28,943 bases of DNA from a virus (Duplodnaviria > Heunggongvirae > Uroviricota > Caudoviricetes), in the IMG/VR virus record IMGVR_UViG_3300043172_000799, positions 1-28,943 of that record, one strand, 5' to 3'. Both the position numbers and the translations under genes were made by a program. Every line of letters starts with the position of its first letter. The stretch's first letter is position 1. The notes beneath the pieces are model-generated. The model saw only the letters and a list, made by a program, of their open reading frames with translations. It searched no databases and was not told the DNA's origin. Positions 1 to 7,900 of this stretch are shown here, in pieces.

Positions 1-9
1 CATTATTTG

Positions 10-438
10 TCAAGTACTTTTATCCAAAGTAATTTTTTCATAGCAATGTGGGCAGATTATAGTTTTTCCAACTACAATCATATCCTGTACTTCTACGATT
101 AGTCCATCCACACAAATATTGTATTGATCATCGTGATCCTCCCCCTGTACTTCTACTATTCCAATTAAACCAAATCTTGTAAATTTACTATTCATCAATG
201 CAATTACTAGTTCTATAGCATCTTGCAAATTATGTGTACCTTCAGAACCACTCCATCTAACTCCAGAGAAGTCTTTTAATATCTCTAAATCTATATATGT
301 TAAATCAGGAAATATATCTCCCCATTCAGGGTGTTCTCGGTAATCTTCTCTGAGAACAGTTTGGAGATAAGCCAGTTCACTAGCTTTTAATTCTCTTGTG
401 AATTTTAATTCCCCATAGTAGTCTATATTGTATCCCAT
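10..438 (-). CDS. hypothetical phage protein with C-terminal CPHC zinc-ribbon-like motif
   Basis: 142-aa ORF; AAGGAG Shine-Dalgarno upstream of the ATG; MGY..Y.G N-terminus of a type common in phage proteins. Confidence 0.8.
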   Translation of the reverse strand: MGYNIDYYGELKFTRELKASELAYLQTVLREDYREHPEWGDIFPDLTYIDLEILKDFSGVRWSGSEGTHNLQDAIELVIALMNSKFTRFGLIGIVEVQGEDHDDQYNICVDGLIVEVQDMIVVGKTIICPHCYEKITLDKST

Positions 439-463
439 AATTACTCCTTTCCAACTTGGCTAA

Positions 464-478
464 TGTGTGTGTGTGTGT
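464..478. repeat. (TG)7 / (CA)7 dinucleotide microsatellite
   Basis: tgtgtgtgtgtgtgt, lying just 3' of the tmRNA-like gene on the minus strand. Confidence 0.9.
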
Positions 479-482
479 AGTA

Positions 483-608
483 TGGAGATGACGGCATCGA
501 AGCCGTGTCCGAACTACATGTACAAGATTTTAATCTACAGGAACTTTCGGTGCTAGTGCATTTACGTCATTCCTAATTACTATAATCCGTCGAAACCTTT
601 ACATCCCC
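483..608 (-). ncRNA. ssrA: miniature tmRNA (ssrA-like), 126 nt
   Basis: Minus strand begins GGGGATGTAAAGGTTTCGAC and ends GGACACGGCTTCGATGCCGTCATCTCCA. Acceptor stem GGGGAUG/CAUCUCC has the G3.U wobble and discriminator A. D-loop has no stem and ends GGUUUCGAC. P2a is GGAUUAUA/UGUAGUUC. T-arm is ACGGC-UUCGAU-GCCGU (6-nt loop). No full CCA tail is encoded after the discriminator. Confidence 0.85.
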
Positions 609-613
609 TAAAA

Positions 614-1152
614 ATCAGAGGGTCTATTTTAGATTGAACCCCCTGCTAAAGCAATCCTGACATGTTTTTAAAGTGGATTTTAAGTTCCCACTACTATGGA
701 TGCCATAGCACAGACAGAACATTATTTAATGTGCTTTCCATCCTTGTTCACACATGCCAAATATTTAACGTGGATTCAATGGCTTCCAGCAAGCAAGACT
801 ATTCTTTCCTCCCCTCCAAACTTTAACGTATTTACTCAGGGTCTTATACGAGTGAGCAGAACGTGCTTTTCTTCCAAACAGTAGCAGAGGTCATCCCGTA
901 GGATCGTCACTAGAACTGCGCAGTTCATTTACAGGGTTATGGTACAACGACCTAAAGATGGTTTAATGTTCCCTGACCACCTTTCCTTAATCCACAGCCA
1001 CACTCTGGGTGCCTACTCTTAGTAGCTTCCTCTCGACTAACTGTTTCATGTCTTAAAGCAATTGGCGTGGTATTCTCGACGCCCCGTTTTACTTCAGCAC
1101 AACATATGTGAATGTGCCCCAACTATCGACCACAGTTGGCTCTCGCTCTGAT
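614..1152 (-). ncRNA. large structured non-coding RNA (~540 nt), family unassigned; size and context like ROOL/GOLLD
   Basis: No credible ORF. Ends pair (AUCAGAG 1152-1146 with CUCUGAU 620-614). More than 10 local and long-range helices, G.U pairs favouring the minus strand, and a c(UACG)g tetraloop at 893-904. Confidence 0.75.
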
Positions 1153-1178
1153 AAACAAAATACTCCTCCTTTATTAAT

Positions 1179-1184
1179 ATTATA
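1179..1184 (-). promoter_or_regulatory. candidate -10 box for the RNA cassette
   Basis: Perfect TATAAT about 27 nt upstream of the large RNA; no good -35 box at 17 nt spacing. Confidence 0.35.
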
Positions 1185-1412
1185 CTATTTCATCTCTACA
1201 ACCATATTAGGTATAGCTTCTGGTACTCTTCTTACATCAAATGTCTCTAGGTTCCCAACATCCTTTGCATAGAAGATCCCTCTCCAAAAACTCTCTGCGA
1301 ATTTTATTGACTTTAATAATTTCATTATTGTTCATTATTAAATCAATCACATCTTTTCTTTCCATTCCCCAGAGTCTCCTTCAAAAATCTCAATCATTCT
1401 TTCTTTTGTCAT
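1185..1412 (-). pseudogene. fragmented small gene(s) between the recombinase and the RNA cassette
   Basis: ATG at 1412 overlaps the recombinase stop (ATGA) and gives only MTKERMIEIFEGDSGEWKEKM*. Protein-like text continues in shifted frames (MERKDVIDLIMNNNEIIKV..., then FWRGIFYAKDVGNLETFDVRRVPEAIPNMVVEMK*). Confidence 0.35.
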
Positions 1413-2344
1413 ACTATTACCTCCAATCCTCTCAAATATTTTTCAGTCACTGTGACACTTGCATGGTGAAGTGCCTTTGACACAAGATAGATATCTTTTG
1501 TCTTACTATATAGCTTGCAAGCAAACATATGACGATAGTCATGCGGTGTATATTTATGCATGATCTCTCTATTTTTATACAAAATCCCAATAGTTCTTCT
1601 GAAGGACGTTTGTACACTATTGCCATTTAAATCTGGCAGTAATTCAGAGTTTTCTGCTATGAAAGCATCTCCTTCCACATTAACTGAATAGAACTTCCCC
1701 TTGCTCATTGAACTTAAGGTTTTACCATCATATTTAATAAACTCTTTATTAAAGAACCCAACCCTCACTGCGTATTTAGTCATAATGTGAATTGCTAGTT
1801 TCATTTTTTTATCAGCTTTGGAATCCGAATTATACATTTCTAGTATATTTTCAATCTCTTTCTCAGAAGGCAAATGCTTAATTTCTGGAACTATTTTAGT
1901 ATTCTTTATTCTAACTCCTAGGAATGGATTTCGTTCAACCCATTCATGTCTACAAAGCATAGAGTAAAATGAAGAAAGTACTGACAGTATGAGCTTTGCC
2001 TTCCCACTACTATAATTACTTAAGACAGAATATTTATACAGATCTACAGTTTTAAAGTTTACATCCAGAAGTGATTTCCCATCTAGATATGTAATGAAAC
2101 TGTTTAGATACAAACTATACATGCGTTTAGTATCTTTGGCTTTGCCCTCAAGGAAGAAATTGATGTTATCCTGTAAATCAAATTCTGACTTTTGTACTTC
2201 AGATTTAACCTGAGTTTTATACTGATCCATTTTTACAGAGAGCAATACATGCTTCAACTGCTCTTCAGATAATTCCCTGAATGACTCCGGCATAGAACTT
2301 AAAATATCTACAACTGTATTCTCTGTATTCATTATAGCTGTCAT
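1409..2344 (-). CDS. tyrosine recombinase/integrase (XerC/D-like)
   Basis: Catalytic motifs YAVRVG (R), PHDYRH (HxxR), LHHASVTVTEKY (H...Y); SAM-like domain ending NPF. Confidence 0.92.
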   Translation of the reverse strand: MTAIMNTENTVVDILSSMPESFRELSEEQLKHVLLSVKMDQYKTQVKSEVQKSEFDLQDNINFFLEGKAKDTKRMYSLYLNSFITYLDGKSLLDVNFKTVDLYKYSVLSNYSSGKAKLILSVLSSFYSMLCRHEWVERNPFLGVRIKNTKIVPEIKHLPSEKEIENILEMYNSDSKADKKMKLAIHIMTKYAVRVGFFNKEFIKYDGKTLSSMSKGKFYSVNVEGDAFIAENSELLPDLNGNSVQTSFRRTIGILYKNREIMHKYTPHDYRHMFACKLYSKTKDIYLVSKALHHASVTVTEKYLRGLEVIV

Positions 2345-2366
2345 ATTTCCCCCTTAACTATAATTC

Positions 2367-2395
2367 ATAATAGCATGATTCTCATTTTTTGTCAA
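2367..2395 (-). promoter_or_regulatory. sigma70 promoter of the recombinase
   Basis: TTGACA-17 nt-TATTAT with extended -10 TG. Confidence 0.8.
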
Positions 2396-2598
2396 GTAGT
2401 TTCTTCTGCACAAAGTTTTAAAAAGTCTTCTCTATACAATTCTTTTAGATTCTTTGAAAATTCTTTATCTCCCATTTCATGTGTGTACACTGGTCTATTC
2501 ATTCTTTTCTCTACATCTTCATGGAAATCTCCAAAGTCCTTTGCCATGAATATTCCTGTGTATCCTGTTACAATAATTTTTTCTTGATTGGTCATCAC
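2392..2598 (-). CDS. hypothetical phage protein
   Basis: 68-aa ORF with AAGGAG RBS and ATGA overlap with the upstream gene. Confidence 0.8.
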   Translation of the reverse strand: MMTNQEKIIVTGYTGIFMAKDFGDFHEDVEKRMNRPVYTHEMGDKEFSKNLKELYREDFLKLCAEETT

Positions 2599-2780
2599 TT
2601 TCTCCTTAAACCTATATCCTCACATATCTCACACGATTTACCAAATGTATGTTTAGGGCACATAAGAGTTTCTAATTCCTCACTTTTATCTAAAATTGGT
2701 TTATGTGCATATAAACCATAATCAATATTGTTTACCAAAAATTTACTTGCTGGTAAGTACATTCCCAAATATTTATTCAT
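2595..2780 (-). CDS. hypothetical protein with Cys/His cluster
   Basis: 61-aa ORF, CPKH...CEIC; stop overlaps the next start. Confidence 0.7.
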   Translation of the reverse strand: MNKYLGMYLPASKFLVNNIDYGLYAHKPILDKSEELETLMCPKHTFGKSCEICEDIGLRRK

Positions 2781-2821
2781 AAATCCACCTAATTACTCCT
2801 CATACTACATAGAATATTTGA

Positions 2822-3304
2822 TTATACCTTATTTACAACACTAGCCATAAGATCACAAACAAAGTTCATCTTCTCAGGAACTGTGCCTAACTTATCTTTA
2901 TGTGCTTTTACATGAACCATTTTAATTCTGATGTCTCTTCCACTTTGTGCTATAAAAGTGTGTAACTTTTTGATGCCATCTTCCATACCTGTTCTTTGAA
3001 CCTCATACCACGGGGTATTCATACGAAGGATGGCCGGTTCACTATCCGTGTATGCCTTGAAGTACACCTCTTTTGGATGTAGTTTGATAGCACGTATTAA
3101 TGCTCCAACTAAAGTTTTAAACTCTAAGTCACATATTGTTGGTCTATTATTCTTTATCTCTACAATTGGTGTACGGCACATTTTTATGGAAGTATAAGCA
3201 TTAGAACTTTTAAATCCTTTGTTCTGACTATTTTTAGTAATTACATAGGCTCCACGGCCTTCTTTATTTGCTATTGATGCATCGGTATAAATATGGATTG
3301 GCAT
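2822..3304 (-). CDS. ribonuclease H-like protein (RNase HI fold)
   Basis: IYTDAS, DLE, YTDS, HVKAH and N..CD match the D-E-D-D catalytic pattern of RNase HI. Confidence 0.8.
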   Translation of the reverse strand: MPIHIYTDASIANKEGRGAYVITKNSQNKGFKSSNAYTSIKMCRTPIVEIKNNRPTICDLEFKTLVGALIRAIKLHPKEVYFKAYTDSEPAILRMNTPWYEVQRTGMEDGIKKLHTFIAQSGRDIRIKMVHVKAHKDKLGTVPEKMNFVCDLMASVVNKV

Positions 3305-7682: not shown

Positions 7683-7900
7683 ATTGAATATTCCTCTAGC
7701 ACTTCACAAATAGCAATTTTGTCATTCTTTATTACAACTCTTGATTCTCTTATATAATCAATAGATCCTTGTAATATATGATCTGTAGCAGTGTATTCTT
7801 CACGTTTCCCTATCATTGCTTCAAAAACAACTCTTACAGAGTCATAATCCCTTAGACAATAATGATCTCTAACTAATTTTTCTACATTTTTATTGGTCAC
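7679..7900 (-). CDS. hypothetical protein
   Basis: 73 aa; GTG start with GAGGAG RBS. Confidence 0.7.
   Translation of the reverse strand: MTNKNVEKLVRDHYCLRDYDSVRVVFEAMIGKREEYTATDHILQGSIDYIRESRVVIKNDKIAICEVLEEYSI

Follow-up and report, generated by a model that had tools for sequence, protein, structure and literature searches.

The window analysed here is the first 28.9 kb (28,943 nucleotides, nt) of a 168,384-bp Caudoviricetes record in IMG/VR (IMGVR_UViG_3300043172_000799) that CheckV rates as complete. On its minus strand, at 608 to 483, lies a 126-nt gene for a miniature transfer-messenger RNA (mini-tmRNA). Read along that strand, a tyrosine recombinase gene (2344-1409) is followed by ~800 nt without open reading frames (ORFs), then by the mini-tmRNA and by a 142-amino-acid ORF (438-10); past this ORF, across the record ends, come genes for tRNA-Trp, Leu, Gln and Met. 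Judged on its sequence, the RNA is a phage mini-tmRNA of the type published for Mycobacterium phage DS6A, extended by a loop that resembles the resume site of full-length tmRNAs and by a hairpin that carries a stop codon. We tentatively read it as a competitor of host tmRNA. Its parts are listed below in window coordinates (RNA position p is window position 609-p), followed by two features upstream.

483..608, minus: whole mini-tmRNA, 126 nt (RF00023, 52.9 bits; covariance model R1, 132.9 bits)
602..608, minus: 5' strand of the acceptor stem, GGGGAUG with G3, pairing with 484-490 (7/7 pairs)
589..601, minus: stemless D-loop region UAAAGGUUUCGAC, including the tmRNA-typical GGNUUCGAC (aligned to the Rfam consensus GGaUUCGAC)
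578..588, minus: 5' strand of helix P2, made up of P2a GGAUUAUA (588-581) and GUA (580-578), pairing with 511-518 and 520-522 (all pairs canonical)
569..574, minus: 5' strand of helix H, AGGAAU, pairing with GUUCCU at 539-544 (compensatory changes)
548..568, minus: internal and apical loop of helix H, with GA at 568-567 and CG at 566-565 pairing with CG at 549-548 (a frame common to 9 of the class-B mini-tmRNAs defined below)
564-550, minus: 15-nt apical loop of helix H, UAAAUGCACUAGCAC, with an A-rich stretch and a resume-codon-like GCA at 559-557
547-545, minus: AAA after the apical part of helix H (from the sequence)
530..559, minus: candidate tag frame, uncertain, GCA CUA GCA CCG AAA GUU CCU GUA GAU UAA (ALAPKVPVD*)
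525..536, minus: hairpin AGAU-UAAA-AUCU with UAA 532-530 in its loop (invariant in 5/5 clade members)
507..522, minus: 3' strand of P2, with UAC at 522-520, A519 bulged, UGUAGUUC at 518-511 and the GGAC junction at 510-507 (RF00023 alignment, covariation, canonical pairing)
491..506, minus: T-arm ACGGC-UUCGAU-GCCGU with a 6-nt loop and a C-G closing pair (3/5 stem pairs covary)
483..490, minus: 3' strand of the acceptor stem, CAUCUCC (490-484), and discriminator A (483) (RF00023 alignment, covariation)
482-480, minus: 3' trailer UAC in place of CCA (from the sequence)
1409..2344, minus: tyrosine recombinase (Pfam Phage_integrase, 34.3 bits; Phage_int_SAM_4, 26.2 bits, under its 27-bit curated cut-off)
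2395-2367: the sole strong promoter-like site, TTGACA-17-TATTAT, preceding the recombinase (promoter scan)

An initial annotation, made from the letters alone, had placed a tmRNA-like element at 483-608; the coordinates are right, with the gene encoded on the minus strand. The score against the Rfam tmRNA model RF00023 is above the gathering cut-off of 47 bits (E 2.5e-18), and the alignment spans model positions 1-374 with both termini matched. Within it 39 nt stand for 284 model positions, leaving the middle ~245 nt shorter than in the model. This is the two-ended hit with an internal deletion that the annotation had expected of Infernal; the hit it expected of ARAGORN did not appear, and that program calls no tRNA or tmRNA anywhere in the window. 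The gene does not pass for a tRNA-Ala, as the D-stem and anticodon arm are absent and it draws no call from ARAGORN or from the Rfam tRNA model. A two-piece (permuted) tmRNA was rejected because the RF00023 match runs in the ordinary 5'-to-3' order.

The tRNA-like domain (TLD) holds every tmRNA hallmark that had been claimed for it: an acceptor stem GGGGAUG/CAUCUCC with G3.U70, a discriminator A, the stemless GGUUUCGAC D-loop, the GAC/GGAC junction and the T-arm. P2a is 8 bp long, includes three G.U pairs and is extended by 3 bp (GUA/UAC). The 62 nt inside it fold as one helix-loop, on helix H (AGGAAU/GUUCCU), and one hairpin, and all pairs of the proposed fold are canonical. Both interior helices, the 6-nt T-loop UUCGAU and the lack of an encoded CCA had been described correctly. 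The pseudoknots PK1-PK4 are absent, and by eye we found no consistent pseudoknot, in agreement with the initial annotation, and no pairing between loop and spacer that holds across relatives. Pairing of the loop with the 5' spacer into a PK1-like pseudoknot was rejected: by eye it can be drawn for three mini-tmRNAs (L006, L227 and L005), at non-homologous positions, and is absent in two others (L236 and L244). The proposed fold has a free energy of -26.8 kcal/mol and the minimum free energy is -33.6 kcal/mol, a difference of 6.8 kcal/mol, and the folding z-score of the 129-nt stretch 480-608 is only -1.8. As the fold is not the thermodynamic optimum and the z-score is weak, support for it must come from comparison.

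That comparison begins with a clade of five mini-tmRNAs from independent contigs (alignment A2): the one described here, L005:6320-6446, which an IMG/VR pattern scan recovered from a 146.6-kb contig rated complete, and L313, L316 and L317 from a metagenome scan. All 29 pairs are kept paired in all five members, and 11 of them change on both sides; none of 500 shuffles and no slid register approaches this combination of pairing and covariation. The covariation among short homologs that the initial annotation had called for is present, and its own refuting condition turns out in its favour, since the relatives carry the short form in place of full-length copies. Both sides change in the three P2a pairs nearest the junction. 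Helix H occurs as AGGAAU/GUUCCU, AAAGAC/GUCUUU and AAGAAC/GUUCUU, with compensatory changes at three of its six pairs. The T-arm has a C-G closing pair with a 6-nt loop, or, in L316 and L317, G-C with a 7-nt loop. G12, G13 and U15-C20 of the D-loop region are invariant, as is G3.U70 (5/5). The hairpin AGAU-UAAA-AUCU and the 2-bp inner helix of the helix H loop never vary, so covariation neither backs nor contradicts them.

R1, the covariance model built here from this clade, recovers 29 class-B sequences, in which 96.7% of cells pair and 23 of the 29 pairs covary; all six pairs of helix H are among the covarying ones (the alignment is fitted to the model in both cases). In this 29-row alignment (A3) the third acceptor pair is G.U in 28 sequences and A-U in one. 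The flanks of the relatives are not syntenic with those of the gene described here, which indicates that no single, recently inherited block accounts for the copies. A search for the portal protein in the contigs of L005, L006, L060, L212 and L239 found no match, an empty answer that shows nothing. This genome and two further CheckV-complete phage genomes with a mini-tmRNA were found to hold no second, full-length tmRNA. On the comparative evidence the mini-tmRNA is a real, conserved gene and neither an artefact of assembly nor a copy in decay.

The T-arm repays a closer look. Its 6-nt loop with a C-G closing pair (GGCUUCGAUGCC) also occurs at 65 IMG/VR loci, full-length and permuted phage tmRNAs included. 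Across representative genomes for 185,579 species of bacteria and archaea it is present at just 13 loci, all of them in uncultured assemblies (metagenome-assembled genomes, MAGs, or single cells). The variant thus looks largely phage-associated, and by these counts the gene described here shares its 6-nt T-loop with many others. The host could not be inferred from the TLD, as the T-arm variant is scattered over 13 MAG contigs, none with fewer than two mismatches to the 28-nt 3' end. CCA is encoded neither by the mini-tmRNA nor by the phage's own tRNAs, and no convincing CCA-adding enzyme was found in the phage genome.

Mini-tmRNAs turn out to be common in phages. Three scans of IMG/VR with a TLD-only pattern (TTCGAC, gap, GGAC, T-arm, TCCA), filtered for 7/7 acceptor pairs, gave 110 unique sequences, all with G3.U70, which the search pattern partly forces. 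Measured from acceptor to A73, ~85 of them (class A) span 65-81 nt and consist of the TLD, P2 and a tiny covarying hairpin, for example AAAGCCGCACGCGGA; the remaining ~25 (class B), to which the gene described here belongs, span 95-137 nt. Complete forms are bimodal in length, at 60-140 and 280-420 nt, with a sole exception of 181 nt (a match with 6/7 acceptor pairs that spans a tRNA-like stretch). For about one-fifth of the minis, tRNA genes are found no more than 1 kb away. Against cultured phages, sensitive blastn of the present gene matched only the 5' TLD of full-length phage tmRNAs, and a search with the 137-nt mini L265 matched only the T-arm ends of full-length tmRNAs (that of Cellulophaga phage Calle_1 is annotated, at 360 nt). 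Class-A genes do occur in cultured phages, near-identical in Streptomyces phages and more distant in a Stenotrophomonas phage. These DS6A-type minis of 78 nt, found in Streptomyces phages LuckySocke, GiJojo, pSt2308, BRock and Alone3 and in Stenotrophomonas virus Jojan60, are unannotated or lie under a 'hypothetical protein'.

There is one named precedent. Hudson, Lau and Williams (2014) list a tmRNA of 'Mycobacterium phage DS6A (TLD only)' (PMC4131195), and they point out, citing Mao et al. 2009, that tmRNA is strongly inhibited by a molecule similar to it, whether or not that molecule can be charged, and that SmpB titration may be the cause. A 2025 tmRNA database paper repeats the DS6A point and adds plastid and mitochondrial forms without a tag-coding sequence (CDS) (PMC11915505). 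In the searchable literature we found no paper on the longer phage minis or on the abundance of minis, and DS6A is the sole one named. Like the gene described here, that of DS6A (JN698994 28478-28560) is a phage-borne, alanine-type TLD closed by P2, without pseudoknots, without a phage SmpB, without an encoded CCA and with an end-to-end RF00023 match from which the middle is deleted. It is shorter, at 83 nt (its end-to-end length by Rfam match, which places it in class A), and has just GAAAACCGCACGCGGUA, a 3-bp hairpin, inside P2, whereas the 126-nt form adds a covarying helix, the resume-like loop with its A-rich stretch and GCA, an invariant hairpin and a possible nine-codon frame. The initial interpretation as a streamlined phage tmRNA-like gene is thus right in kind, borne out by a complete record and covarying relatives, and not in novelty, given a published precedent and the frequency of minis; the phage type as such is barely described.

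Compared with standard tmRNA (RF00023, for example the ~349-nt ones of Lactococcus 949-group phages), the mini-tmRNA shares the TLD and P2, has a context resembling that of a resume codon and a putative stop in a hairpin loop, and over its 5' 20 nt is identical both to the Lactococcus phage tmRNAs and to one faecal-phage tmRNA. It is ~220-250 nt shorter, lacks PK1-PK4 and, if its tag is read, lacks a degron of the LAA type. Engineered E. coli tmRNAs without pseudoknots, attributed to Nameki et al. in 2000 and Tanner et al. in 2006, reportedly show that the TLD, P2, a frame and helix 5 can suffice for tagging; unlike the phage RNA, these constructs are said to keep the normal spacing (with single-stranded or hairpin substitutes) and the natural tag. 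Mitochondrial tmRNA has an Rfam family of its own (mt-tmRNA). The CDS-less organellar tmRNAs, of jakobid and oomycete mitochondria and of the ~65-bp plastid genes of Mallomonadaceae, resemble the phage mini in keeping little beyond the TLD, and they are presumed to act with SmpB without normal tagging (PMC11915505). They differ in being vertically inherited, and none has been reported with a resume-like loop.

The interior holds more than the two helices to which the initial annotation had confined it: the helices are there, and the loop of the first holds a resume-like motif. Nine class-B minis, this one included, share an interior frame of helix H, GA-CG, a loop of 14-17 nt, CG-AAA and the return strand of helix H. 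The apical loop starts A-rich and continues with GCN (here UAAAU-GCA-CUAG), a combination that recurs in 23 class-B sequences (once with GGC) and resembles the ARAGORN resume consensus of full-length phage tmRNAs (aataaatGCT, aataaacGCC, gataagtGCA). The hairpin that follows, GUAGAUUAAAAUCUUGUA, is clade-specific, occurs once only in the 168-kb genome and does not vary among the five clade members, apart from a single change in a flank in L317. No other segment of the RNA is as conserved in the clade: hairpin and flanks reach 0.98 identity, compared with 0.81 for the TLD and 0.58 for P2. Its loop contains a UAA, which we take to be placed like the stop codons in helix 5 of E. coli tmRNA.

Reading from the GCA of the apical loop gives nine codons (ALAPKVPVD) before the UAA in the hairpin loop. 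The spacing from GCA to UAA is 27 nt in four of the five clade members, whose predicted tags are ALAPKVPVD here and ALDSKVLVD, ARDSKVLVD and APESKVLVD in L313, L316 and L317, respectively. In the fifth, L005, a 1-nt insertion between GCA and the hairpin puts the UAA out of frame and leaves the hairpin intact, which indicates that the hairpin is constrained as RNA. Differences within the candidate frame do not cluster at third codon positions (CUA/CGA/CCA; GCA/GAC/GAG). Nor are in-frame stops enriched after the GCN: they occur in 12 of 23 class-B minis, compared with 17 and 12 of 23 in the other two frames. We therefore rejected the tag frame as a class-wide feature; on half of the class-B minis a ribosome would read on through the T-arm until the RNA ended. 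The candidate tail ends in Val-Asp, and LAA- or AAV-type ends were present in 22 of the 22 full-length phage tmRNAs examined. A further class-B mini of 136 nt (L269:272-407) has GCN followed immediately by UAA (AACAU-GCC-UAA) and would specify a one-codon tag, which recalls the two-amino-acid Ala-Ala tags reported for Fermentibacterota (PMC11915505).

The A-rich and GCN loop is kept with or without an in-frame stop and so fits a binding motif better than a message. In full-length tmRNA the region upstream of the resume codon is contacted by SmpB. Our first reading of the loop is accordingly as a putative binding motif, and the frame from GCA is a real but unproven possibility.

So, what might the mini-tmRNA do? 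The explanation we place first, while holding it tentatively, is that it is a phage-encoded, host-dependent competitor of host tmRNA. Host tRNA-processing enzymes would excise it from a longer transcript and the host CCA-adding enzyme would complete its 3' end. Host alanyl-tRNA synthetase would charge it with alanine (G3.U70, A73), and host SmpB and EF-Tu would bind the TLD. The A-rich and GCA loop, like the SmpB-contacted region upstream of a resume codon, would provide a second contact. The RNA would then occupy SmpB and the A site of ribosomes stalled on non-stop messages, drawing rescue away from host tmRNA, and nascent chains made during infection would escape the host proteolysis tag. 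What the analysis shows is the gene, its fold and conservation and the lack of a phage SmpB; processing, charging, SmpB binding and competition we infer. An SmpB gene was not found in this phage genome or in five other mini-bearing contigs, so the mini-tmRNA must rely on host factors.

Several observations appear to favour competition. The TLD is complete, carries all hallmarks on the alanine and SmpB sides and scores above the Rfam cut-off; compensatory changes keep the fold in independent contigs; and this genome and two other complete ones have no second, full-length tmRNA. By analogy, the DS6A 'TLD only' tmRNA points the same way. We also count in its favour that the phage's tRNAs likewise have no encoded CCA and that L005 keeps the hairpin out of frame. 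Other observations weigh against it. A pure SmpB sponge would need the TLD only, as in the 65-81-nt class, and the added hairpin, better conserved than the TLD, is left unexplained. A nine-codon frame to UAA kept in four of five clade members suggests that it is really decoded. That blocked tagging would benefit the phage is assumed, and some phages require tmRNA activity, not its loss.

These last points lead to the next explanation, which is possible and, on balance, rather unlikely: the RNA would be a complete, pseudoknot-free minimal tmRNA on which translation resumes at GCA 559-557, proceeds for nine codons and stops at UAA 532-530. The ribosome would be freed with an (A)ALAPKVPVD tail that lacks the ...LAA degron, giving rescue without proteolysis, which would pay off when broken mRNAs pile up through phage nuclease activity. 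The match of the loop to the resume context of full-length phage tmRNAs suggests as much, as do the identical spacing in four members and an interior at least as conserved as the TLD. The stop in a hairpin loop has its counterpart in helix 5 of E. coli tmRNA, in which PK2-4 and even PK1 can reportedly be replaced without loss of tagging. On the other side stand the frame-breaking insertion in L005, where the hairpin is kept, the substitutions that do not favour third codon positions, and in-frame stops that are no more frequent than in the other frames of the longer minis. The putative resume codon lies 5 nt past the helix and ~30 nt from the TLD, far nearer than in characterised tmRNAs, and the tag is not of the ...LAA/AAV type that all full-length phage tmRNAs found here encode. 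Our ranking places SmpB and ribosome competition first and a working short-tag tmRNA second, with an RNase decoy low; the sequence cannot separate them.

That decoy, which we consider improbable, would act on host defences that sense or cut tRNA- or tmRNA-like RNAs (anticodon nucleases, RNase R-linked pathways, CoCoNuTs), soaking them up or substituting for cleaved host tmRNA. The setting is rich in tRNAs: the four tRNA genes across the record ends lie ~1.2 kb downstream on the same strand, and the proximity of about one-fifth of the minis to tRNA genes is of a piece with this. An RNA ligase ORF lies near one class-B locus and a CCA-adding-enzyme-like ORF near another. CoCoNuT SmpB-like domains are predicted to bind tmRNA (PMC11090510), and a known phage anti-CRISPR works with t(m)RNA fragments (PMC11662646). 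However, no defence system is known that targets the TLD specifically, nothing at this locus links the gene to an anti-defence gene, and the conserved resume-like loop and hairpin would go unexplained.

A role in integration is less probable again. The gene would be the core of the phage attachment site (attP) for the recombinase ~800 nt upstream, with host ssrA as the target, or it would replace a disrupted host tmRNA gene, comparable to 'tRNA-dependent lysogeny'. The recombinase is on the same strand with only non-coding sequence between, tmRNA genes are common bacterial attachment (attB) sites, phage-borne replacement tRNAs are documented (PMC10865867), and the class-B loci L212 and L239 also have a recombinase within ~2 kb. 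As a general rule the linkage was rejected, since just 3 of the 28 class-B loci have an integrase within 3 kb; L005 and L317, the nearest relatives whose flanks are long enough, have none. An attP would need the 3' part only, yet compensatory changes keep the 5' half, and all 13 bacterial loci of the T-arm variant are at least two mismatches from the 28-nt 3' end. DS6A, itself a mini carrier, integrates at tRNA-Lys (PMC10865867). Least probable of all is a non-functional remnant (an internally deleted ssrA) or an assembly artefact, with which the weak folding z-score is compatible. It is already largely refuted: five independent contigs share the architecture, keep 100% of the pairs and show compensatory change at 11 of them, the flanks are too different for a single recent inherited block, and the lengths fall into two groups with one 181-nt exception.

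The surroundings of the gene are those of a divergent phage. The record ends overlap by ~125 bp, which marks the genome as circular or permuted, and G+C along the window is 31-37%. It encodes portal, tape-measure and tail-tip proteins, a ribonucleotide reductase and a family A DNA polymerase, and ARAGORN finds five tRNAs in the genome outside the window. Window positions 1-3000 have no megablast match among cultured phages, and the portal protein is <28% identical to that of any cultured phage. The tyrosine recombinase could serve integration or dimer resolution. A promoter of the mini-tmRNA's own was not supported, as promoter-like sites are at chance (9 observed, 8.6 expected), and the scan found no terminators. 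The ORF-free stretch 614-1152 was unmatched by blastn and tblastx in L005, L313, L316 and L317, and the L005 mini directly follows an ORF. If 614-1152 is co-transcribed with the mini-tmRNA, RNase P cleavage at the mini's 5' end would also set the 3' end of the upstream RNA. Directly past the mini's 3' end, within the trailer UACUACACACACACACACAUUAG, is a (TG)7/(CA)7 dinucleotide run at 464-479.

We noted further elements in this and other phage sequences. The 898-amino-acid ORF adjoining the portal gene (genome 45942-48638; L071:942-3638) has a LAGLIDADG domain and is likely an intein or homing endonuclease in the terminase, and a 447-amino-acid ORF (genome 54839-56182; L071:9839-11182) has a Cas12f1-like TNB domain (TnpB-like). 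Downstream of the L005 mini, Rfam tRNA matches of 107 and 116 nt (L005:7320-7426 and 7683-7798) are overlong and may contain introns. In Lactococcus phages of the 949 group (AM1, L002:1505-1853, and WRP3, L003:1505-1852), a tRNA cluster encloses a full-length tmRNA that is not annotated (117-118 bits), and a skipping-rope RNA (RF02924, 71.8 bits) lies ~320 nt downstream of it. The permuted two-piece form of tmRNA occurs on phage contigs in 14 of 50 fragment types (L007, L009, L010, L019, L027, L037, L067, L180, L190 and others), with a 3' piece (the P2 3' strand, a T-arm often with a 6-nt loop, and CCA) followed 7-133 nt downstream by the 5' piece GGGG...TTCGAC. Promoter-like TTGACA...TATAAT precedes the 3' piece in L007, L016 and L035.

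Bacteria rescue stalled ribosomes mainly through the tmRNA-SmpB pair, which is also a drug target, and the question of which portion of the ~350-nt tmRNA is required has so far been probed with engineered E. coli variants only. Phages appear to have repeated that minimisation many times, and almost none of the 110 unique minis is annotated. The RNA described here is among the few with a restart-like site and a stop-bearing hairpin, and so offers a natural test of how the frame is set on tmRNA. It bears on whether phages block, replace or re-purpose host ribosome rescue, and it makes the size limit of tmRNA testable. If the mini merely titrates SmpB, it would be a compact natural inhibitor of trans-translation. 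Should the less likely case of full trans-translation hold, it would be the smallest complete tmRNA known, at 126 nt, pseudoknot-free and with a degron-less tail; phages would then recycle stalled ribosomes without destroying the proteins, and the minimal tmRNA architecture that a ribosome accepts would be defined.

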